This document shows, piece by piece, positions 7,691-57,039 of a stretch of DNA of 64,000 bases (position 1 is its first letter; every line of letters begins with the position of its first letter). The stretch comes from an uncultured Patescibacteria group bacterium (lineage in GTDB: Bacteria > Patescibacteriota > Minisyncoccia > Phycocordibacterales > UBA918). The position numbers and the translations under genes were made by a program. Location: assembly GCA_934699595.1 (NCBI GenBank), contig CAKUWT010000002.1, positions 37,065 through 101,064 on the forward strand. Reading direction: 5' to 3'. The notes under the pieces were generated by a model. The model saw only the letters and a program-made list of their open reading frames with translations. It searched no databases and was not told the DNA's origin.

Positions 7691-7853
7691 GACGTGCCTC
7701 CCTTGTGTCTGATGTCTTCCGACTTTGATTAGACCATATTTTAATTAGAAAAACAATAAGTGCTGTTATTATGGTTAGGGAGTAAAAAGAACGGGAACGC
7801 GGATGCTTTTGCATCCGCGCCCTCGTTCCTTATTAGGGTCCATAGAGTAGCCT

Positions 7854-10268
7854 CTATAAATCATCGACCTCAAGCACAATCTCACCCCCCTTCTCTACTT
7901 GCCCGGCAATAATTTTGTTAGTCGCTGTATCCTCAATTTTTTCTGCAATCAAACGCTGTAAGGCACGTGCCCCAAAACGGTCGTCGTAACTGGCTGCAAT
8001 CAGAGTTTTAATAAACTCAGTACTCACGCGTAGTTTGTAGCCACGATCAGCCATCGACTTTTTAAGTTTATCAACCATTAGGTAAGCGATCTGAAAATAT
8101 TCGTCAGCATTCAAGGGTTCAAAAACCACCACATCGTCAAAGCGATTGATAAGCTCTCGTCGGAAGATACGGTTCTTGATCAGGTTGTCGACAACCGCAC
8201 TTTCAAGTGTGGGTGCGTCCATGCGGGCGGAGGTTGTATGAGCAATTAAATCCGCGGCCGCATTACTGGTTGCGATGATAATGGTGGTACGCAAATTGAC
8301 CCGCTCTCCGCGACCATCGGTGAAAAATCCCTCGTCAAGCATTTGTAGAAATAGATCATGGACGGACTGAGTAGCTTTTTCGAATTCATCAAACAGTAAA
8401 ACAGCATAAGGTTGCTGGCGAATTTTATCGGCCAAAGCTCCCGTCGCCCCTTTTTCACCAATCAGCTTTGCTAAACCGTCTGCCTGACTGTACTCCGACA
8501 TATCAAAACGAATCATGGCATTTTGATCTTTGAACAACACTCGCGATAGTGATTTGGCCGTTTCGGTTTTCCCTACCCCAGTTGGTCCCAGGAATAAGAA
8601 AGAGCCAATCGGTCGTTCAGTTTGACTCATTTGTAGACGAGCTCGGCGCAAGGCACGCGCGATACTGTTAATAGCGGCATCCTGCCCAATCACCTGGCAG
8701 TGCAGCTCGTCTTCCAGACCGAGCAATTGATCGCGTTCAGTATCGTCAATCGGTCCCATCGGTATGCCAGTTTTTTCACTAATATATGTATAGACAAAAT
8801 CTTCCTGCACCAAGTTAGTTTTTTGGCTCCTGACCACGCCGCTGATTTCAGCAAGAAAATCCAAAGCTCGGTCACTGAGGGTTTCCTGTTGTAGGCTGCG
8901 CTTACTTCCGGCCAGAATAGCCTCAAGAGCTGGGTAGGTAAAATAAACTCCCTGATAAGAAAGGTTCCTTGCGGCAGCTTCTAAAAGAGCAAGAACTTTT
9001 TCATCGCTGAGTTCCTCCACCAGGATTTGCTCAAAGCGCCGCACTACTCCACCGAGTGGGGAAATATGTCGATGGAAATTAGCGGGGGTGTCGGTGGCAA
9101 TAATATGTAAACCAGTCATGGCCAAATAATCATCAATCACAATTGGCAAACTCACTTGGTAACGAGCTGTCAAAGCCATCATGTCACTGAAGTTTTCAAT
9201 GATTATGGTGAGATTACCAGCTTCAGCCACCTGATCGAGAATGTCGTGAAAAGCAGCCTCGAGGTCAATCTGGTTTGGATAAGTTAGCACCAGCTTCTCT
9301 ATATCCAGAGGGATTAAGTGTTGTCCCGACAGAGCGTTGAGTGCACGTCCGGAACGAAGTCGCTGTTCAACCGCTAGCAAAATATCCATTTTACCTACCC
9401 CTTCATTACCTATGAGGAGGACATTACTGGCACGGCTATTAGCTAGGGCAACTTCAATTTTTTCAATCTCTGGCAAAAATTGCTTTTCAGCGGAAACTAA
9501 ATTAGCAAATGTGGCGTTAGCACGGAGAGGCTTAGAAAATTCTTCTAAGGCATAGGAATAACCGTAAACCAGTTCTCTTCCTAGGCCGCCGTGTCGTGAT
9601 AAATTATCTCGACTCCACCACCGTTCTCGCCGTAGCGATTCCTGGTGACCGCTGACCAACCAGCGAGCAGTTTTTAGAAAAGTAGCGGGAGTGACGCCTT
9701 CAGATTGAATAAAGTCACTAAAGCCAGTATCTTGCTTAAGGATAGTTTCAGCCAGGCTCCTTAGGGTGAAAGTTTTGGTGGGTAAAGGGATTTCAGTAGT
9801 TTGTAGACGGCGTCGTTCTGGCTGGTTTACCCAACTGTCAACCTTATCCAGATCAAGACCAGCTTGCCAAGCGATGCGTCTGCCCCAGAGAGATTCTAAA
9901 AATTGTCGAGTGAGGTCTCCTTGGTCGGGAATAAGAGTGTCGGCCACTGCAAAAGTAATCCCAGCCTGTGCTTTGTTGTGACTGGCAATAACTGAGTCTA
10001 GACCCCGAAAGTAGAAGCTGTTGCTGTAGGTGTAAACTAAGATTTGCTCTAACCATAAAGCGAAGAGGATCAGATTCAGTCCTAACCAGCGGGGATGATA
10101 CCAATCTGGATATATGGTTAGAGAAAGAATGAGGAAGATCAGTGAGAGGCAAAGTAGGTATAGCAAGGTTAGCCGCAGGCGACGTAGAAATGACCGTGTC
10201 GCTAAACGGTTTAGGATTACGAACGTGCGAAATTGGTTTAGAGTAGAGGTTAAATTTTTCTGATACAT
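7854..10268 (-). CDS. Clp/Hsp100-family AAA+ ATPase (ClpB/ClpC-like) with an N-terminal transmembrane region
   Basis: 804 aa with two AAA+ modules. NBD2 has a canonical Walker A (GPTGVGKT) and Walker B (LLFDEFE). NBD1 has GNEGVGKM and IIIENF. The N-terminal roughly 90 aa are strongly hydrophobic. Confidence 0.85.
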   Translation of the reverse strand: MYQKNLTSTLNQFRTFVILNRLATRSFLRRLRLTLLYLLCLSLIFLILSLTIYPDWYHPRWLGLNLILFALWLEQILVYTYSNSFYFRGLDSVIASHNKAQAGITFAVADTLIPDQGDLTRQFLESLWGRRIAWQAGLDLDKVDSWVNQPERRRLQTTEIPLPTKTFTLRSLAETILKQDTGFSDFIQSEGVTPATFLKTARWLVSGHQESLRRERWWSRDNLSRHGGLGRELVYGYSYALEEFSKPLRANATFANLVSAEKQFLPEIEKIEVALANSRASNVLLIGNEGVGKMDILLAVEQRLRSGRALNALSGQHLIPLDIEKLVLTYPNQIDLEAAFHDILDQVAEAGNLTIIIENFSDMMALTARYQVSLPIVIDDYLAMTGLHIIATDTPANFHRHISPLGGVVRRFEQILVEELSDEKVLALLEAAARNLSYQGVYFTYPALEAILAGSKRSLQQETLSDRALDFLAEISGVVRSQKTNLVQEDFVYTYISEKTGIPMGPIDDTERDQLLGLEDELHCQVIGQDAAINSIARALRRARLQMSQTERPIGSFLFLGPTGVGKTETAKSLSRVLFKDQNAMIRFDMSEYSQADGLAKLIGEKGATGALADKIRQQPYAVLLFDEFEKATQSVHDLFLQMLDEGFFTDGRGERVNLRTTIIIATSNAAADLIAHTTSARMDAPTLESAVVDNLIKNRIFRRELINRFDDVVVFEPLNADEYFQIAYLMVDKLKKSMADRGYKLRVSTEFIKTLIAASYDDRFGARALQRLIAEKIEDTATNKIIAGQVEKGGEIVLEVDDL

Positions 10269-16368: not shown

Positions 16369-16768
16369 AGGGTAGTGTAATCCTGTTATAGTACACACTG
16401 TCTATTTATTGAAACTGGATGAATCTGTTGATCAAGGTCAGCCCCCACGTCGCTTACAGAGTATTAGTCATTAAATAGACAGGGTCCTCATAAACTCAGT
16501 ATTTGGACCCAGATCAGACCTATAGGCCTATAAGGGAAAAAGATAATAGACAAAAGTCGCCTCTGGGGACAAACCTGTGTATTTGTGGATAAGAGACAAT
16601 CGTCTTTTATGGATTATCTTATTTAGAGCCATATATTAAAAGACATAGTCAAAATATGGTCTTATTTAATGTTTCACGTGAAACAAGTTACACGAGAAAC
16701 AGTCTTTAGCTAGAACGATAACCAAGTATCATTTTAATTAGACCAGGCTGTGTGTTAAACTAGCCTCA

Positions 16769-17170
16769 GTGTCAAGGCTAAAAAATAAGCAAATTGGCAA
16801 TCTAGGAGAATCTGTTGTTGCAAATCACTTAGTGAGACATGGGTTCACTATTTTAGAACGAAATTACCTTAAAAAGTGGGGTGAAATTGACATTATTGCA
16901 GTCAAAAGCGATAAAGTGCATTTTATCGAAGTAAAAACTGTTTCATATGAAACAAAATCTCTATTAAAGTATGCTGTTACACATGAAACTTGGCGACCTG
17001 AAGAAATGGTGCATAAGCATAAACAAGAACGGTTTAAGCGAGTAATCGACACTTGGTTAAGCGCCACTAGTTATCAAGGAGATTGGCAAATTGATGTTAT
17101 CACCTTAAGAATTGTGCCACGTGAAACATACGCTGTTATAAAAGTCTTTGATAATTTAATCTTTGAGTGA
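16769..17170 (+). CDS. YraN/UPF0102-family putative endonuclease
   Basis: 133 aa with G..GE..A..HL...G..ILERNY....GEIDIIA....V.FIEVKT, the UPF0102 signature. Confidence 0.7.
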   Translation: MSRLKNKQIGNLGESVVANHLVRHGFTILERNYLKKWGEIDIIAVKSDKVHFIEVKTVSYETKSLLKYAVTHETWRPEEMVHKHKQERFKRVIDTWLSATSYQGDWQIDVITLRIVPRETYAVIKVFDNLIFE

Positions 17171-18117
17171 ACGCAGACATGTTACACGTGTAACTAAAAT
17201 GTCCGAATATTGAGATTTAGGACCAAAATTACGTTTTTATAAAAAACAAACATAAAATAAATGAGGACAGTCCTGCTGATAGTAGATAATTTTGTAATCT
17301 AGTTAAGAGCCAGTCATCTTTTGGGAGTAGAGGCGAGGGTTACACGTGTAACTGAATTCGCAGAAACGTAGGCTAGATTGAGCCGTCTTTGATCAGCACG
17401 CTAGAATAATGGACGTATTTATACCTGCTGGCACTACCTTCTTTAGGTAATTCTCAAAAAAAGAGAAGAAAAGGTTACCGACTGATTGGTCCAGGGCTGC
17501 CGGACTTACTGACTTGGTTAAAAAACTTCGAAATTCTTCTTGATAAACACTGCCTTGGTGCATTGGTTGAGATTACCGCTTAATTATAAGGTGATTTATG
17601 TAGAATTTACCGTTTTAGAAGTAAAAATGTTTCCCATGAAACGGCTTTTAAAAAAATAATACTTATAAATCGATCTTTGGGCAAAGACCTTAAGTCTTTG
17701 TTGGTACAACTTACTCGTTGGAATCAACTTTGGGTCATATTTTTCTAAAAAAGAGGATATAATACTTATTATACGCTGGAGTGCATCAGAAGTTTGGACT
17801 TAAATGCTATTCAGGTGTTACACGTGTAACTGGTTAGATTACAAAAATTCCAGAAACTAGTAGAATCGATATGAAATTTGGCAGAAACCGGTAAAAAACT
17901 GGCAATAACTTCTAATTATCTGTCATGGGGTTAGTTTCACGTGAAATATTTGTCTTGTGAGCTTCAGTTTAAATCTATGAGGGTTTTTGACTGGCGCAAA
18001 AGGTTAAGCAAATGGTGGAGGATTAACTGTTGTTGTATACATAGCGATATGTAATCGAACTGTGCGGTTTCAGCATGGATTGTCGATTTTTTACTTGCTA
18101 TTAAGTGGGTACTAGCC
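17171..18117. repeat. Roughly 950-bp noncoding stretch with no ORF of 60 aa or more, containing repeated 14-bp CACGTG-core palindromes and hairpin repeats
   Basis: GTTACACGTGTAAC occurs at 17181-17194, 17339-17352 and 17817-17830. GTTTCACGTGAAA(t) occurs at 17934-17946, and GTTTCACGTGAAAC lies upstream at 16671-16684. A tttgggCAAAGAC-cttaag-GTCTTTG hairpin sits near 17672-17700. Confidence 0.55.
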
Positions 18118-47426: not shown

Positions 47427-47657
47427 ATGAAAAAACTTCTTTTTATGGCGGCTGCCGCCGCTCTCGTGACTACCTCAACCCAAGCAGAGGTGAAAAGTCC
47501 AACATCTGCCCTGTCTCAGATTCAGTCGCAGAACACCTCTCTGTCCTTGGGGGAAATGGGGGAGGTGAGAGGTGAGGCAATTCCCTGGCCTCTATATTAC
47601 GCTGTTTTGCATGCGCCGTCGCTGGCTGCACTTCTCAGTTCGGCCATCCGATTTTAA
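47427..47657 (+). CDS. Small hypothetical secreted protein
   Basis: MKKLLFMAAAAALVTTSTQA signal peptide. AGGAGAG SD lies 5 nt upstream of the ATG at 47427. Confidence 0.35.
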   Translation: MKKLLFMAAAAALVTTSTQAEVKSPTSALSQIQSQNTSLSLGEMGEVRGEAIPWPLYYAVLHAPSLAALLSSAIRF

Positions 47658-47688
47658 ATACTGTGTTTAGTATATTCTTTGTTAGAAT

Positions 47689-48288
47689 ATGTTTATAATA
47701 GATATCTGTAAAAAGTATTTGTCGATCAGTCTGGAGCCGCCCATTGGTGAAGCTGTTCTTGTGTTGGGGGTTATTTGTATTCTAACAGCAATCGGATTCA
47801 TTGACGGTATAACAGCCTTAAGTTGGTTTATTCCAGGATCTTTATTCATTTCTTTCATTTTGGGGATATTTCTCTTGAGTAGATTGTGGCAATATAAAGC
47901 AGCTAGTGCGTATTGGTATTTCTATACAATATTTATAATTCTCAACATCATCATCAGTATTGGTGTTATTGTAAAATTGTTCACCTTGAACTTCTTAACT
48001 TTACTGGGCCTGCTTCTTTTTATAACAAGTATTTTTTCAGCTTTGTTTGCGGTAATGATTTTATTAGGGAAGAGTTATTTTACAAAAAAGTTTTGGCGGA
48101 TATTCTTTTTTTTGGAAATAATCCTTATTCCACTAGTCCTGTTGTATAGTTATAAGGTTAAATTCCTTACCAGTGCTGACACCCTCATAACTACTAAGGG
48201 AATGATTGTTACTAGTATTGTGTATATTGTTTTGGTCTTGCCATATTTTTACAAACTCTATAAGTACAGTTTTGATAAAACTAAATAA
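47689..48288 (+). CDS. Hypothetical polytopic membrane protein encoded in a markedly AT-rich segment
   Basis: 199 aa, I/L/F-rich with several predicted TM helices. The local base composition is visibly lower in GC than the flanks. Confidence 0.5.
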   Translation: MFIIDICKKYLSISLEPPIGEAVLVLGVICILTAIGFIDGITALSWFIPGSLFISFILGIFLLSRLWQYKAASAYWYFYTIFIILNIIISIGVIVKLFTLNFLTLLGLLLFITSIFSALFAVMILLGKSYFTKKFWRIFFFLEIILIPLVLLYSYKVKFLTSADTLITTKGMIVTSIVYIVLVLPYFYKLYKYSFDKTK

Positions 48289-48293
48289 AAACA

Positions 48294-48322
48294 AACCCCA
48301 GCATGTCAAACATGCTGGGGTT
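48294..48322. terminator. Hairpin terminator
   Basis: AACCCCAGCATG-TCAAA-CATGCTGGGGTT immediately after the membrane-protein stop. Confidence 0.5.
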
Positions 48323-48544
48323 CTCCTTAAATATATCACCGTAAAAGAACTTGAGAACGAAGACGCTGCAGAGTTAGTGGAGATTATTAAAAAGTTTTTT
48401 GATGTTAATCGGACACTTTGTGTAATTAGTGGAGATGTAGATTGGGTGGCGCAGGAAAAGATTAAGGACAAATTCCGCGCCGTACAGACGAGAGAATAGC
48501 TCCCTCTTTCTCCTCACCTTTCTCTGTGTTAGCATTAGAGCCAT

Positions 48545-51222: not shown

Positions 51223-51421
51223 ACTTTAATCATAAAAAGTTTAGGGATCCGTACACCAAAATAGTTTATATTCGCTACAGATAAACGACTGCGATACAGA
51301 GGTAGGACCTTTGGTATCAAGAATATGCGAAGAATGAAAAAGTCAGCTTTTAAAATAATAAGTTTGCCTCTCTCATTCTTAATTACTTACTAAATTAAGA
51401 ACTTAAGTTTACTAAAACTAT

Positions 51422-51895
51422 ATGCGACGACCAGTAAAAAAGAAGCCAGTCGTAAAGCCAGACGTTAAGTATGGCTCTATCGATGTGGAGCGCTTGATCA
51501 ATTACATCATGCTCCATGGTCAGAAGGAAACCGCCCGCAAAATCGTTTATGGTGCTTTCGCTGAAATCGAAAGTCGTAAAGATGGCGGCGGTGATCCGGT
51601 GGAAATGTTTAATACTGCGCTGCGGAACGCCGGTCCGTTGATGGAGGTGCGCTCTCGTCGAGTGGGTGGAGCCAACTACCAAGTGCCGCGAGAAGTGCGG
51701 CCAGAGCGTCGGGTATCTCTCGCTTTGCGTTGGATTATCAACGCGGCCCGCGGACAAAAAGGTGTCCCGATGTACAAAGCCTTGGCAAGTGAAATCCTGC
51801 TGGCTGCTAAAGAAGAGGGAACTGCTGTGAAGCGACGCGATGATATGCACAAGATGGCAGAAGCCAACCGAGCCTTTGCTCACTTTGCTTGGTAG
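51422..51895 (+). CDS. rpsG: 30S ribosomal protein S7
   Basis: 157 aa with an S7-typical sequence. Confidence 0.95.
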   Translation: MRRPVKKKPVVKPDVKYGSIDVERLINYIMLHGQKETARKIVYGAFAEIESRKDGGGDPVEMFNTALRNAGPLMEVRSRRVGGANYQVPREVRPERRVSLALRWIINAARGQKGVPMYKALASEILLAAKEEGTAVKRRDDMHKMAEANRAFAHFAW

Positions 51896-52010
51896 TAATC
51901 CTGTCAACTGCTTTAAAGTCAAAGCCCCGTTCTCATGAACGGGGCTTTGACTTTATCCCTATCATAATTACCAAAAATGGTGTAGGGTAAGCTTTCATTC
52001 AACCTATGAT

Positions 52011-53492
52011 ATGTCACGACCAGAAGGCGTAATTGTTTTTAAAGAAGTGGGTTTTGAGTACGACTCTACCCGACCGATTCTCCGCGAGGCGAGTTTTGTG
52101 GTGCGCCGTGGCGCCAAACTGACGCTAATGGGACAAAACGGGGCTGGAAAGAGTACTATTTTCTCCCTCATTACCGGAAAATTAGCCACTGATGAGGGTA
52201 GTATTAACTTGCCGCCTCGTACCACCATTGCCATTGCGCGCCAGATTATTCCTCGGGAAGAATTGCTGCTGACGGTGCGTGATTTTTTCCTGGAGAGTTT
52301 TAGCGAAAAGGTTTATGATATAGACCCACGGATTGATGCAGTCTTGGAAATCGTCAACCTGACTCCAACTGAGAAGCAACGTAGTACTTTTAAGGATAGG
52401 ATTGTTGGCACTTTTTCTGGCGGACAACAGGCCCGGCTGTTGTTGGCGCAGGCTTTAATTCAGAACCCAGATATTTTATTACTTGATGAACCGACTAATA
52501 ACTTAGATCGGAGCGGTATTGAGCAACTGACTACTTTTTTGAAAGAGTACCGCAAGACGGTGCTGGTTATTTCTCACGACGCTGACTTTTTAAACGCTTT
52601 TACCGAAGGAATTCTTTATTTAAATACCCAAACCAGAACGGTGGAGCAGTACGTGGGTAATTATCACGCCGCTCTGAAACTAATCGCCGCCCAAGTCGAG
52701 CGTGAGCAAAGACAGAATACTTTACTGGAAAAAGAAATTAGAGACAAGAAAGACAAGGTCAACTACTTCGCCAATAAGGGCGGTAAGATGCGCCTATTAG
52801 CCAAACGGATGCGGGAGGATATTGCCGAGGCAGAGGAAGATAAGGTGGAGGTGCGTCGCGAGGACCGCACTATTCGTGACTTCACCATCCCGAAACAGGA
52901 TAACTTACCCACCACGGTGCTAACTTTAGATAATTACCAGGTGATTAAAAACCACGAACCAAAAGTAGTAACTTGCGACCTGGTGCTGAAAAAAGGGGAG
53001 CATCTGCAGATTATTGGCCCCAACGGGATTGGTAAGACCACTTTGTTGGAGCGCTTAGCTAATGATGAGACTAATGAGTACGTGGCCGCTGGCGTTAAAG
53101 TCGGTTATTATCGCCAGGATTTTTCTAACTTAAATTTTGAGAAAACTGTCCTACAAATTCTCGAAGAGGCCTTGAGTAGTCGCAATGAAGAGGCTGTTAG
53201 GTCGCGAGCGTCCGGATTTTTGCTGACCGCGGAAATTATGAAGACCAAAGTTGGCCATTTATCAGAAGGACAGAAGGGTTTGGTGGCGTTTGCTAAGCTG
53301 GTTTTGGAAGCTCCTGGCTTGCTGATTCTGGACGAGCCCACCAACCATATCAATTATCGGCACTTGCCAGTGATTGCCAAAGCTTTGGATCAGTACGAAG
53401 GGGCGCTGATTTTGGTCTCGCACGTGCCGGAGTTTGTGGCCAAAGTACGGATTGATACGGTTCTGGATTTAGGAAAGAAAATCCGTAAGTAA
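52011..53492 (+). CDS. ABC-F family ATPase (tandem ABC domains, no TM domain)
   Basis: 493 aa with two Walker A motifs (GQNGAGKST; GPNGIGKTT), two LSGGQ/LSEGQ signatures and a charged inter-domain linker. Confidence 0.8.
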   Translation: MSRPEGVIVFKEVGFEYDSTRPILREASFVVRRGAKLTLMGQNGAGKSTIFSLITGKLATDEGSINLPPRTTIAIARQIIPREELLLTVRDFFLESFSEKVYDIDPRIDAVLEIVNLTPTEKQRSTFKDRIVGTFSGGQQARLLLAQALIQNPDILLLDEPTNNLDRSGIEQLTTFLKEYRKTVLVISHDADFLNAFTEGILYLNTQTRTVEQYVGNYHAALKLIAAQVEREQRQNTLLEKEIRDKKDKVNYFANKGGKMRLLAKRMREDIAEAEEDKVEVRREDRTIRDFTIPKQDNLPTTVLTLDNYQVIKNHEPKVVTCDLVLKKGEHLQIIGPNGIGKTTLLERLANDETNEYVAAGVKVGYYRQDFSNLNFEKTVLQILEEALSSRNEEAVRSRASGFLLTAEIMKTKVGHLSEGQKGLVAFAKLVLEAPGLLILDEPTNHINYRHLPVIAKALDQYEGALILVSHVPEFVAKVRIDTVLDLGKKIRK

Positions 53493-53551
53493 TGACTATT
53501 TAGTGTTTCTGATAAATTAGGTACTTGCCCGGCAGAATTGGGAGTAGGTTA

Positions 53552-53580
53552 TTGACATCCGTACTTAAATATGCTATATT
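53552..53580 (+). promoter_or_regulatory. Canonical sigma-70-type promoter for the GC-rich minigene
   Basis: TTGACA (53552-57), 17-nt spacer, TATATT (53575-80). A GGGAGG SD at 53607-12 lies 7 nt before the ATG. Confidence 0.55.
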
Positions 53581-53619
53581 AGAAGGAGTAAAGGATTGTT
53601 ATTTCTGGGAGGAATATCG

Positions 53620-53946
53620 ATGTGTAAGATCGAGCGGCGTGAAATTGCGCTGGAGACCAGCACGGTCTTCGTCTCCGACAGGCATGACTGCCCGTACTCG
53701 GAGCGGTATTGTACCGCTCTCCCCGAGTACGGGGAAAGTGATCAGGTCTCTGACCTGATCGCCGCCGCTTTCGACCGCCGGGCCGAGCGGGAACGCTTGG
53801 CCGCTCTGAAGAGGTGCCGCGGTCGCGGCCGCTCCGGGTGGAGGCCGCTGCGCATCCACGATTACCGTAGCGGACAGCCGACCATTTCGGTTGAGGCCGA
53901 GGCTGATGCTGAAGAGTTCGCCAGCTATGCTGACTTCGACGTGTAG
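53620..53946 (+). CDS. Small hypothetical protein encoded by a visibly GC-rich, compositionally foreign segment
   Basis: 108 aa (MCKIERREIALETST...). It has a strong promoter, an SD and a downstream terminator. GC content by eye is well above that of the flanks. Confidence 0.5.
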   Translation: MCKIERREIALETSTVFVSDRHDCPYSERYCTALPEYGESDQVSDLIAAAFDRRAERERLAALKRCRGRGRSGWRPLRIHDYRSGQPTISVEAEADAEEFASYADFDV

Positions 53947-54049
53947 GATCTTTTGCTTGACGAAGCTGGGTGGCTGGCGGAGATGATTCTCCCCCAGAGA
54001 CCCGGCGCCAGTCTTGATCTGAGGTAACACCTCCGATCGTTCAAATTAA

Positions 54050-54077
54050 GGCCGCCAGCTCGCTGGCGGCTTTTTTC
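54050..54077 (+). terminator. Rho-independent terminator of the GC-rich minigene
   Basis: GCCGCCAGC-TCG-CTGGCGGC followed by TTTTTT. Confidence 0.65.
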
Positions 54078-54122
54078 TGTGTCAGGTAGTTTCTAGAGAT
54101 ATTTTTGCTATAATGCACCTAT

Positions 54123-54689
54123 ATGAAAAATATTATTATTGTCGGATTGGGGTTGGTGGTCGTAGTCTTGTTAGTCTGGGCTTTTATGACGGGTAAGCTT
54201 GGATTTGGCACACCGGTAGCGACCGTGCCGGGAGAAGAAACAAGTACCACTACCGACAATCCCGCGACTGAGACTGGTGAAGCTGAAGACAGTGATGCCG
54301 ACGAGCAGTGGGTGGCCAGTTACTTGCCCGCCATTGACGCTTTGGCTGATAAGATTACCGTTAGTTCGGTTACTCCGGGCACGGTAATAACTTCGCCAGT
54401 AACCATCGCAGGAGAGGCTCGAGGTCCTTGGTATTTTGAAGCTAGTTTTCCAGTTTTCCTCAATAATTGGGATGGTCTGACGATCGCCACTGGTGTCGCA
54501 ACCGCCCAAAGTGATTGGATGACTGAAGACTTTGTCCCATTCACACTATCCTTAAGTTTTGTTAATCCGTACCAGGTTGGTGACCCTGATTTTATGAAAA
54601 AGGGCACGCTGATACTTAAGAAAGACAATCCTTCTGGCTTACCCGCCAATGACGCCAGTTTAGAGGTGCCGATTTTCTTCGCCAACTAG
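54123..54689 (+). CDS. Membrane-anchored secreted protein with a Gmad2-like immunoglobulin-like domain
   Basis: 188 aa with an N-terminal anchor, an acidic T/E/D-rich linker and a beta-rich C-terminal domain. Confidence 0.45.
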   Translation: MKNIIIVGLGLVVVVLLVWAFMTGKLGFGTPVATVPGEETSTTTDNPATETGEAEDSDADEQWVASYLPAIDALADKITVSSVTPGTVITSPVTIAGEARGPWYFEASFPVFLNNWDGLTIATGVATAQSDWMTEDFVPFTLSLSFVNPYQVGDPDFMKKGTLILKKDNPSGLPANDASLEVPIFFAN

Positions 54690-54867
54690 TTTGGTGACTG
54701 CCGCGGACGGGTGACGTGCCGTTGCCGTTTCGTCATTAATGCGTTATAGTACCTCCGTCTTGTCATTTTATGACGGTACTCTTTTCTATCAGCCGTGCGC
54801 AATTTTGTGAACAAAGAGACGGAAGGAGGTTTAGCAACAATCAATTAAATTTTAATAACTTTATTTT

Positions 54868-57039
54868 ATGGCCCGAGAGTTTCCTATTGAGCGCACCCGC
54901 AACTTTGGAATTGTAGCGCACGTTGATGCTGGAAAGACCACGACCTCTGAGCGTGTACTTTTCTTTACTGGTATGACCCATAAATTGGGTGAAACCCATG
55001 ATGGCGCATCTGTGACCGACTGGATGGAGCAAGAACGCGAGCGTGGTATCACGATTACGGCGGCGGCAATTTCTTGTAACTGGTCCAAGTCTGACGTGGT
55101 GGATCGTACCGATAAATCACAAATGTATACCTTCAATGTTATCGACACCCCGGGCCACATCGACTTTACCGCTGAGGTGAAGCGGTCAATGCGCGTTTTG
55201 GACGGCGCCGTGACCGTCTTTGACTCGGTGGCAGGAGTGGAGCCGCAATCAGAGACCAACTGGGCTTATGCTGATGAGGCGGGAGTACCACGATTGTGCT
55301 ACATCAATAAGATGGACAAACTCGGCGCTGACTTCAATAAGGCCTACCAAACCATTGTCAGTCGCTTGTCTAGCAAAGCTGTGCGCGCCCAAATACCGTG
55401 GGGCAAGGAGGATAGTCTCAAGGGAGTGATTGATTTACTGACTCGAAAAGCCTACACCTTCGAAGGTAATATGGGCATGGAAATTAAGGAGCATGAGGTG
55501 CCTGAGGAATATCGCGAGGAAATGGAAGAGTTACGTGCCGAATTGATTGAGCGCATTGTGGAGCATGATGACGCTGCTATGGAAGCTTTTTTGGAAGGCG
55601 AAGAGCCGAGCTTGGAAGATCTGAAGAAGATCATGCGTAAAGCGGTGTTGGCTAATGAAATCTTCCCGGTTTATACTGGTTCCTCATTGAAAAATATCGG
55701 CGTACAGCTAATCCTTGATGCTGTGGTGGACTACCTGCCGTCACCAGTTGATTTGCCGCCAGTGCACGGTATCAATCCTAAAGATGATAGTGAAATTGAG
55801 CGTAAGCCAAGCGACGCTGAGCCATTTGCCGCCCTGTCTTTCAAATTGCAAACTGACCCGTTTGTGGGGCAGCTTACCTTTTTCCGAGTTTATTCGGGTG
55901 TGATTAAAGCTGGTAGTTATATTTATAACGCCAATACTGGTAAAAAGGAGCGACTCGGACGGATCGTACGTCTTCAGGCTGACAAGCGTACTGAAATTGA
56001 GGAAGTTTACGCTGGTGAAATTGCTGCTGGAGTTGGGTTGAAAGATATTAAGACGTCACATACTCTTTGTGACGAGAATAACCCGATTATTCTAGAGCAG
56101 ATCACTTTCCCAGAACCGGTGATCGCCCTTCGAGTGGAGCCGAAAACTAAGAACGACCAGGAGAAAATGGGTGTCGCTCTTAAAAAGTTGGCTGATGAAG
56201 ACCCGACTTTTAAAGTATCTACTGACCCAGAAACGATGGAAACAATTATTGCGGGTATGGGCGAGCTACACCTTGAGGTGTTGGTGGACCGGATGAAGCG
56301 TGAGTTTAACGTGGAGGCTAATGTGGGTACGCCACAAGTAGCTTATCGTGAGACCATTCAACGGGAAGCGGAAGCCGATTATAAGTACGTTAAGCAGTCT
56401 GGCGGTCGGGGGCAATATGGACATGTCAAGATTCGTATTAAACCAATGGAGCCGCTGGCTGAGGGTGAAACTGTGGCCAAGAACGTTACTCGTGAAGATC
56501 ACTTTGAGTTCATCAACAGTATCAAGGGAGGGGTGGTGCCACAGGAGTACATTCCAGCTGTGGTAAAAGGTGCGCGCGAAGCGATGGCCCGTGGACAGGT
56601 GGCAGGATACAAAATGGAGGATGTCTCAGTTGAGCTTTACGACGGTAGCTACCATGATGTTGACTCCTCAGAAATTGCCTTTAAGTTAGCCAGTATTTAT
56701 GCTTTCCGGGACGCGGCTAAGAAAGCTAACGCCGTCTTGCTAGAGCCAGTGATGAAGGTAGAAATCCGCACCCCAGAAGAATACCTTGGTGATATTAACG
56801 GTAATATTTCTAGTAAGCGAGGTCACGTGGAGAGTATGGGAGAGATTGGCGACAAGCGCGTCATTACTGCCAAAGTACCACTATCAGAAATGTTTGGTTA
56901 TACCAATACCTTGCGCTCAATGACTCAAGGGCGAGCTACTAACATGATGGAGTTTGATCACTACGCCGTGGTGCCACCAAATATTGCTGATGAGATTAAG
57001 AAAGTGCGTGGGGTCAAGGACGTGGTCGACGAAGATTAG
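54868..57039 (+). CDS. fusA: Elongation factor G
   Basis: 723 aa with G-domain motifs AHVDAGKTT and DTPGH, and full five-domain length. Confidence 0.95.
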   Translation: MAREFPIERTRNFGIVAHVDAGKTTTSERVLFFTGMTHKLGETHDGASVTDWMEQERERGITITAAAISCNWSKSDVVDRTDKSQMYTFNVIDTPGHIDFTAEVKRSMRVLDGAVTVFDSVAGVEPQSETNWAYADEAGVPRLCYINKMDKLGADFNKAYQTIVSRLSSKAVRAQIPWGKEDSLKGVIDLLTRKAYTFEGNMGMEIKEHEVPEEYREEMEELRAELIERIVEHDDAAMEAFLEGEEPSLEDLKKIMRKAVLANEIFPVYTGSSLKNIGVQLILDAVVDYLPSPVDLPPVHGINPKDDSEIERKPSDAEPFAALSFKLQTDPFVGQLTFFRVYSGVIKAGSYIYNANTGKKERLGRIVRLQADKRTEIEEVYAGEIAAGVGLKDIKTSHTLCDENNPIILEQITFPEPVIALRVEPKTKNDQEKMGVALKKLADEDPTFKVSTDPETMETIIAGMGELHLEVLVDRMKREFNVEANVGTPQVAYRETIQREAEADYKYVKQSGGRGQYGHVKIRIKPMEPLAEGETVAKNVTREDHFEFINSIKGGVVPQEYIPAVVKGAREAMARGQVAGYKMEDVSVELYDGSYHDVDSSEIAFKLASIYAFRDAAKKANAVLLEPVMKVEIRTPEEYLGDINGNISSKRGHVESMGEIGDKRVITAKVPLSEMFGYTNTLRSMTQGRATNMMEFDHYAVVPPNIADEIKKVRGVKDVVDED

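Follow-up and report, generated by a model that had tools for sequence, protein, structure and literature searches.

The 64,000-nucleotide (nt) stretch analyzed here (contig CAKUWT010000002.1, positions 37,065 to 101,064 of the forward strand; referred to below as the window) comes from an uncultured Patescibacteria group bacterium. It contains a cluster of ribosomal-protein and translation-factor genes in the order rpsL, rpsG, ABC-F ATPase, a short block rich in guanine plus cytosine (GC; window positions 53552 to 54077), a gene for a Gmad2-domain protein whose N-terminal segment is hydrophobic, and fusA. Beyond fusA lie one open reading frame (ORF) of 206 amino acids (aa) and then a run of unannotated ORFs that fits tuf and the S10 operon in size and order. 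The block is a monocistronic unit between its own promoter and terminator, with a leader that carries a Shine-Dalgarno (SD) sequence, an ORF of 108 codons (ORF108), and a structured 3' untranslated region (UTR) of about 100 nt. On balance, we read it as an intact, functional, and self-contained gene for a small protein, lineage specific (a singleton to date) and foreign in composition, which horizontal transfer most likely brought into a variable slot between rpsG/ABC-F and fusA. The features of the block are as follows.

53552 to 53580, plus strand: sigma-70-type promoter, with -35 TTGACA (53552 to 53557), a 17-nt spacer, and extended -10 TGcTATATT (53572 to 53580); 11/12 match
53607 to 53612, plus strand: SD sequence GGGAGG, 7 nt 5' of the ATG at 53620, as read from the sequence
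53620 to 53946, plus strand: ORF108 (108 codons plus a TAG stop), encoding a putative orphan small protein; three-base periodicity, foreign codon usage, and only self-matches
53947 to 54047, plus strand: 3' UTR of about 100 nt, GC of 0.55, carrying hairpins H3 and H4
54048 to 54077, plus strand: intrinsic terminator, with an 11-bp stem (7 G-C pairs) and a 4-nt loop (stem-loop at 54048 to 54073), followed by TTTTTT
53599 to 54030, minus strand: shadow ORF of 143 aa, codon-aligned antisense of the plus-strand ORF; judged not to be a gene

Expression signals of the block

An original prediction, made from the letters of the window, had described a TTGACA-N17-TATATT promoter, a GGGAGG SD sequence, and a strong terminator, and all three are present at or near the positions that it gave. 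The signals are self-contained, as it had also proposed: no other site in the window matches the promoter consensus as well, and the block ends in a strong terminator (predicted energy, -18.6 kcal/mol). When the whole window was scanned for sites matching at 11/12 positions or better, this promoter was the only one on the plus strand; one other was found on the minus strand and lacks the TG extension. Transcription would start at approximately 53586 to 53588, about 33 nt before the ATG. The only 7-mer common to both flanks of the block is TGCTATA, which belongs to the extended -10 element of this promoter and to that of the adjacent Gmad2 promoter (54106). The block promoter therefore follows the local grammar.

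The Gmad2-domain gene itself (54123 to 54689) has an extended -10 element, TGCTATAAT (54106 to 54114), that ends 8 nt before its ATG, and no SD sequence. Its mRNA thus looks leaderless from the spacing of these signals.

Foreign composition

The block is by far the strongest compositional island of the 64 kb, and its composition is foreign. The maximal-scoring GC-rich segment of the window spans 53631 to 54070 (440 nt; GC of 0.627; 24.7 nats), with the runner-up at 10.6 nats. Among 160 bins of 400 nt, the highest GC (0.61) was that of 53601 to 54000, followed by 0.54 (window mean, about 0.46). In sliding windows of 330 nt, GC peaked at 0.639 centered on the block, compared with a mean of 0.459 (standard deviation, 0.046; z = 3.9) and a maximum of 0.579 elsewhere. 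The sequences on either side are AT rich (GC of 0.36 in 53493 to 53619 and 0.33 in 54078 to 54122). The windowed values bear out the prediction of a block far more GC rich than its surroundings (440 nt at 0.63 versus about 0.46), and at z = 3.9 its GC is unlike the genome mean.

Codon usage deviates in the same way. The GC content at third codon positions (GC3) of ORF108 is 0.75, compared with 0.463 ± 0.062 (maximum, 0.661) for 101 host chunks of the same length, a difference of +4.6 standard deviations; relative to the host, the ORF is higher by 0.17 in overall GC and by 0.29 at third positions. Its synonymous-codon score (-0.027) lies 2.6 standard deviations below that of the host chunks (0.072 ± 0.038). 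Because third-position composition is largely independent of protein sequence, these values reflect a foreign codon dialect and not merely an odd amino acid makeup. Both measures agree with the description of the block as compositionally foreign. The Arg-to-Lys ratio of the 108-aa product, counted from the translation, is 14:2.

The window also holds opposite compositional outliers, namely, AT-rich islands at 47601 to 48400 and 16401 to 18000 (GC of 0.32 to 0.38 versus 0.46). The former overlaps an ORF of 199 aa (47689 to 48288) that has no Pfam match in the ENA record.

ORF108 and its coding signal

The predicted 108-aa ORF with an Arg-rich center was found at 53620 to 53946, and a TTG at 53596 provides an alternative start that would give 116 aa. 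Cysteines, expected near the N terminus, occur at residues 2, 24, 31, and 65, and the protein includes the stretch KRCRGRGRSGWRPLR. Its center is a predicted Arg-rich helix and loop (DRRAERERLAALKRCRGRGRSGWRPLR), and its C terminus is acidic and aromatic tipped (EAEADAEEFASYADFDV). The product has no signal peptide and is net acidic (about -5 by count); its tryptic peptides would include EIALETSTVFVSDR and IHDYR.

Several statistics reveal a clear three-base periodicity in the frame. The GC contents at codon positions 1, 2, and 3 are 0.63, 0.50, and 0.75, respectively, a pattern that the two halves of the ORF share (phase permutation, p = 0.00085). A chi-square test of nucleotide by codon position gave p = 2.9e-5, with G at position 1 reaching 0.41 and A at position 3 only 0.05. 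GAN codons (Asp/Glu) account for 19.4% of codons in frame versus 0.9% and 6.5% in the other frames, a share equaled by none of 5,000 dinucleotide shuffles (shuffle mean, 8.9%). The chance of such an open frame was P = 0.026, and that of the GC3-GC2 difference was P = 2e-4. Plus-strand calls of the ORF, in its 108-aa or 116-aa form, are also present in the protein collection from ENA, NCBI, and Logan records. We conclude that the block is probably protein coding, or was so until very recently.

Searches for relatives of the block

As far as sequence comparison can tell, ORF108 is a singleton: one marginal match aside, about 15 billion proteins from genomes and metagenomes include no relative of it. 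A k-mer/HMMER search of 5.8 billion clusters returned only the locus itself, in a cluster whose two members are its 108-aa and 116-aa forms. When 1.84 billion representatives were searched exhaustively with phmmer, the locus and one other protein, P0002 (E = 2.3e-4), were the only matches. No usable match to ORF108 was obtained in Pfam, PADLOC, or NCBIfam, so no known model of a defense or toxin-antitoxin system was matched, and the unit is monocistronic. PHROGs gave a single weak match (E = 0.022), which, like P0002, points toward phages, and the best match among PDB sequences had an E value of 0.26. Relatives were detected neither by tblastn of ORF108 against phages and plasmids nor by scans of IMG/VR and JGI metagenomes with the back-translated ORF.

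Nucleotide searches gave the same result. No DNA homologue of the block was found by blastn and nhmmer in 80 ABC-F-syntenic loci, and blastn against plasmids and phages yielded just chance matches of 20 to 50 nt. A 22-mer from the 3' UTR had no exact match in IMG/VR. A 20-mer from hairpin H1 had one exact match in the JGI metagenomes; it falls within a high-GC ABC permease gene and does not extend beyond the 20-mer, and we rejected it as chance. The 64-kb window contains no second copy of the block and no similarity to it elsewhere in any frame.

The one marginal relative, P0002, is a DEAD/ResIII helicase of 821 aa (locus L087, 5001 to 7466) with three tandem C-terminal repeats of approximately 75 aa, which are 68 to 78% identical to the first repeat. 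Residues 28 to 81 of ORF108 align to each repeat with 23 to 28% identity, and the shared motif is YG-x-x-D-x-V ... DRRA ... K-x-x-x-GR-x-S-x-W-x-P. The phmmer E value is summed over the three repeats, and the match is marginal. A comparison of ORF108 with the three-repeat profile by hhalign gave a probability of 80% over 54 columns, and a hidden Markov model of the repeat scored the real ORF108 at 18.0 bits, ranking it first against 20,000 shuffles (best, 14.9 bits). The motif is found in each of the three repeats; ORF108 differs from them in being stand-alone and single copy, with other flanks, and in being Arg rich where the repeats are Lys rich. The repeats presumably resemble the "helicase-associated" (HA) domain of Pfam, and Pfam HA (PF03457) gives no match to them. 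They may represent an undescribed helicase-associated repeat. The contig encoding P0002 (41 kb; 42% GC) carries tightly packed co-directional genes, nearly all without a Pfam domain and including an HNH endonuclease. Judged from this gene content it is phage-like, short of a proven phage.

Genomic slot and its state in relatives

The closest relatives of the ABC-F and EF-G proteins are from Patescibacteria (Paceibacterota or Kaiserbacteria-like metagenome-assembled genomes); ABC-F identity is at most 73% with GTDB species representatives and reaches 80% with metagenome sequences. By these protein affinities the organism is a member of the candidate phyla radiation (CPR), as had been proposed, but not a saccharibacterium. 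The proposed location of the block between rpsG/ABC-F and fusA is right in position, except that the Gmad2-domain gene intervenes before fusA.

The neighborhood had also been called an otherwise conserved ribosomal region, which does not hold for this interval. The distance from rpsG to fusA is about 3 kb here versus 7.6 to 12.3 kb in the relatives that have both genes in the fetched locus (L004, L006, L007, and L008), so that this slot varies from 3 to 12 kb, and its cargo genes are unrelated to one another and mostly unannotated. Several relatives have the Gmad2 gene upstream of the ABC-F gene, and it changes sides between genomes. In the nearest relatives (79 to 80% ABC-F identity), the ABC-F gene is directly followed by an unrelated ORF of 180 aa (L083) or 1,051 aa (L084), neither with a Pfam domain. 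None of the relatives examined, whose ABC-F identity does not exceed 80%, has the block at the corresponding position. Across the 80 syntenic loci, the block is not conserved, and its codon usage does not match that of the host. Together with the foreign composition, this absence supports the horizontal acquisition that the original prediction had suggested.

Two other possibilities were rejected at this position. A conserved element 3' of the ABC-F gene would be suggested by strong promoters there in several relatives; these drive unrelated genes (e.g., an ORF of 454 aa and two of about 145 aa, none similar to ORF108), and no element is shared. The relatives' loci (about 0.95 Mb) also contain 41 GC-rich blocks, and those inspected are ordinary higher-GC genes, not homologues.

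Three further observations concern the cluster. The ABC-F ATPase gene lies inside the str operon, between rpsG and fusA, in this Paceibacterota lineage (window positions 51895 to 54868; loci L002 to L009, L083, and L084). The rpsL-rpsG spacer (51223 to 51421) is unusually long (about 200 nt) and AT rich (GC of about 0.32 to 0.36). In locus L011 (UBA2103; 7736 to 8128), the ABC-F gene and a small GIY-YIG gene are followed by a 12/12 promoter (TTGACA-16-TGtTATAAT) and an orphan ORF of 109 aa that is GC richer than its genome (0.54 versus 0.47; GC3 of 0.66), an architecture like that of the block with an unrelated sequence.

Predicted structure of the transcript

The predicted plus-strand transcript (53585 to 54077) has a minimum free energy of -239.8 kcal/mol (z = -6.8), and none of 100 shuffles folded as well; the opposite strand folds nearly as stably (z = -6.1). 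The 3' UTR without the terminator is also stable (z = -4.9). Four hairpins stand out, and they are a genuine, unexplained feature of the block.

53689 to 53735, plus strand: hairpin H1, inside the ORF; 11 + 7 perfect bp with a 4-nt bulge, -31.5 kcal/mol; the 11-nt inverted repeat is 100% complementary
53738 to 53762, plus strand: hairpin H2, inside the ORF; 9 perfect bp (GATCAGGTC/GACCTGATC) extended to 11, 3-nt loop; -14.1 kcal/mol (53739 to 53761)
53965 to 54006, plus strand: hairpin H3, in the 3' UTR; 16 bp, -25 kcal/mol
54016 to 54038, plus strand: hairpin H4, in the 3' UTR; 9 bp, -11 kcal/mol

No match to known RNA families was found: 4,227 families of Rfam 15 gave no match at an E value of ≤1 in 53300 to 54300; at the gathering threshold, the whole window contained 4 tRNAs only, and 12 relatives' loci contained nothing beyond tRNAs. 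ARAGORN detected no tmRNA.

Weighing the coding reading

Several observations weigh against a functional, horizontally acquired protein-coding gene. A codon model scores ORF108 at 0.051 bits/codon; this score is at the 2nd percentile for chunks in the true frame and is attained by about 14% of off-frame chunks, and the antisense frame scores slightly higher (0.117 bits/codon). The model was trained on 29 high-GC genes, most of them from higher-GC relatives (mean GC of 0.59 and GC3 of 0.71). A single-sequence AlphaFold2 model was uninformative (predicted local distance difference test score, 35). No homologue was found that would reveal purifying selection on ORF108. Transfer is argued from composition and patchy distribution, and no donor, integrase, flanking repeat, or attC site was found; in particular, no direct or inverted repeats of at least 8 nt flank the block, and no tRNA lies within 30 kb of it. 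The repeat of P0002 is itself without a family, given that it has no significant Pfam match and that a profile search finds no further members. Finally, the ORF region is more stably folded than both dinucleotide shuffles (z = -4.7) and synonymous-codon shuffles (z = -3.2), and a near-perfect 18-bp hairpin such as H1 has a chance expectation in 330 nt of roughly 1e-5 or less (a rough estimate). Fold stability and H1 point to a constraint at the RNA or DNA level. We nevertheless favor the coding reading: the three-base periodicity and the correctly placed SD sequence and ATG outweigh the ambiguous codon model.

A first alternative is that the transcript itself is functional, either as a novel, highly expressed structured noncoding RNA (ncRNA) of about 490 nt or as a dual-function RNA with a secondary ORF. 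Its GC richness would then have the same cause as that of other structured RNAs, which are conspicuous in GC-poor genomes. The stability of the whole transcript and of its parts (ORF and 3' UTR), the near-perfect H1 and the 9 perfect bp of H2, and the combination of the window's strongest consensus promoter with a strong terminator, as is often seen for abundant stable RNAs, would all fit. Long GC-rich intergenic regions (GC-IGRs) are, moreover, an established predictor of structured ncRNAs (PMC6429828, PMC11109978), and the codon model does not clearly favor coding. The strong periodicity and the in-frame excess of GAN codons would have no reason to exist in an RNA gene, however, and the SD sequence and ATG open the sole long frame right after the promoter. 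The Rfam and tmRNA searches were negative, and the relatives' loci (about 1 Mb) contain no homologue and hence give no covariation support. The minus strand also folds nearly as well as the plus strand, so part of the signal comes from palindromic DNA and not from RNA structure specific to one strand. An ordinary gene segment reaches considerable stability as well: the first 327 nt of the ABC-F gene (52011 to 52337) fold with z = -3.7, compared with -0.5 to +0.7 for the other three ABC-F segments. We consider a functional RNA unlikely, though worth keeping in view.

A second alternative holds that the block is what is left of foreign coding DNA decaying between host-type signals, with a nonfunctional or truncated 108-aa ORF and an inherited periodicity. 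The frame of ORF108 remains open for 26 further codons past the TAG (DLLLDEAGWLAEMILPQRPGASLDLR; window positions 53947 to 54026), up to a TAA at 54024 to 54026, near the end of the island. This continuation is the best-scoring frame there and keeps the pattern of lowest GC at the second codon position (0.65, 0.38, and 0.61 at positions 1, 2, and 3, respectively), so the TAG could be a recent or premature stop in an ancestor of about 135 codons. The weak codon-model score and the lack of a detectable family agree with decay. On the other side, an intact near-consensus promoter, SD sequence, ATG, and terminator frame the ORF precisely, and the 16-bp hairpin is a better explanation for the segment in the 3' UTR. 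Had the block been a fragment of a real family, the phmmer search of 1.84 billion representatives should have revealed it. Streamlined genomes of Patescibacteria are, furthermore, expected to purge junk. A remnant is improbable on this evidence.

Native origin, i.e., de novo emergence, rapid divergence, or overprinting with GC richness arising from selection (e.g., on mRNA structure), appears very unlikely. The TGCTATA extended -10 element is that of the host, no mobility signatures were found, and the majority of the species-specific orphans covered by a large survey seem to be native and not viral (PMC11293555). The same survey found that native or de novo orphans normally have a GC content equal to or under the genome value, whereas ORF108 exceeds it by 0.17 overall and by 0.29 at third positions. 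The Arg-to-Lys ratio is unlike the expectation for a host of 46% GC, and no other part of the window is similar to the block in any frame.

That the real gene is the 143-aa minus-strand ORF, or that the block is an assembly chimera, we regard as scarcely credible. The high-GC shadow ORF had been noted in the original prediction and is indeed present; its frame is open for 143 codons and, as noted above, scores slightly over the sense frame. As a gene, it would have atypical GC contents at codon positions 1, 2, and 3 (0.75, 0.50, and 0.63, respectively), no promoter, a GGAGG that abuts its GTG start, and a hairpin upstream. It is absent from the gene calls in the collection, in which only the plus-strand ORF is called, and it has no match in Pfam, PHROGs, PADLOC, NCBIfam, plasmids, phages, or IMG/VR. 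As for a chimera, the ENA, Logan, and NCBI assemblies all come from one sample or study. The gene occurs in separate assemblies of differing contig sizes, and the junction-spanning DNA (801 nt; 53400 to 54200) is identical in an ENA MEGAHIT-style k141 contig (75 kb) and a Logan contig (30 kb). The 116-aa product is on record for a 141-kb NCBI contig too, and the island lies exactly between promoter and terminator. An assembler-specific chimera is thus unlikely.

Origin and possible function of the gene

Horizontal gene transfer (HGT), the simplest account of the block, is common in Patescibacteria: it accounts for as much as 13% of genome length, chiefly through exchange among Patescibacteria but also through viruses (PMC12455944). 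The self-contained coding gene that we favor would have come from an unsampled donor with a GC content of about 60%. The original prediction had looked to a high-GC host, particularly among Actinobacteria; the searches gave no homologue in the approximately 15 billion proteins. A recent transfer from a sampled high-GC host should leave such a homologue and is therefore unsupported. This source is further weakened by the only marginal relative being on a phage-like contig of 42% GC. To our knowledge, a relationship with high-GC actinobacterial hosts is documented for Saccharibacteria and not for Paceibacterota. Nor need a high-GC host be invoked, given the mean GC (0.59) and GC3 (0.71) of the higher-GC Patescibacteria genes used for training. 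The fetched Patescibacteria loci reach a GC of 0.60, and a donor of about 60% GC therefore need not lie outside the phylum. A phage or a higher-GC patescibacterium would thus be a more plausible source.

Once in place, the gene would be strongly transcribed from its host-type sigma-70 promoter, and its cytoplasmic, net-acidic product would be translated from a hairpin-rich mRNA, with transcription ending at the intrinsic terminator about 100 nt past the stop codon. The protein is predicted to begin with a beta-hairpin, followed by an Arg-rich helix and loop at its center and by an acidic tail with an aromatic tip. In small phage nucleic-acid-binding proteins, which this layout recalls, an acidic tail modulates a basic binding surface. 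Because of this layout together with the similarity to the helicase repeat, we tentatively propose a protein that binds nucleic acids or competes with them and is related to the C-terminal repeat of a phage-like helicase; this doubtful assignment is the weakest step of the scheme. The 3' hairpins would at least stabilize the mRNA, and binding of the protein to them is speculation.

Comparison with known systems

The block is real, cleanly delimited, and of a familiar kind, behaving like a species-specific orphan or a single-gene HGT islet. Like species-specific orphans and HGT islets (PMC11293555; PMC12455944), it is short, belongs to no family, has atypical codons, and is patchily distributed in a variable slot. 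It shows the composition and the absence from relatives that mark an HGT islet; a donor homologue and mobility signatures were not found. It differs from species-specific orphans in being far GC richer than its genome (GC3 of 0.75 versus 0.46), in having the best consensus promoter in 64 kb, and in its unusually hairpin-rich mRNA.

The resemblance to ncRNAs found by GC-IGR/DIMPL searches (PMC6429828, PMC11109978) is also considerable. If the ORF is ignored, the block is a gap of about 630 nt between two genes, with a 440-nt island of 63% GC in a genome of 46% GC; it is predicted to fold very stably and is served by a promoter and a terminator of its own. Unlike such RNAs, it has codon periodicity and a well-placed SD sequence and ATG, with no Rfam match and no covariation support. 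Integron cassettes share with the block a single short ORF, a 3' region rich in (imperfect) palindromes, and a position among unrelated genes. The block differs from them in having its own promoter, no integrase nearby, no flanking repeats, and a single copy in the window; in 53450 to 54200, neither of the attC core motifs R''/R' (RYYYAAC/GTTRRRY) was found on either strand.

A dual-function unit in which a phage-derived Arg-rich protein binds H1 to H4 of its own transcript, or a highly expressed, structured RNA of about 490 nt unique to the lineage, would have no described counterpart, and we give either only an outside chance. In the former case, a self-contained RNA-protein module would have been captured in the str/S10 ribosomal neighborhood of a CPR bacterium.

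The importance of the block by itself is limited, as it is one orphan without a family. It does carry two cautions, namely, that GC-rich "intergenic" islands can be unannotated foreign small genes, which matters for ncRNA screens, and that a compositional island needs a donor match before it is attributed to a host. GC-rich singleton orphans are candidates for phage-derived functions, such as nucleic acid binding or antidefense. If our reading of the block is right, streamlined Patescibacteria still acquire and express foreign genes, here inside a cluster of ribosomal-protein and translation-factor genes.

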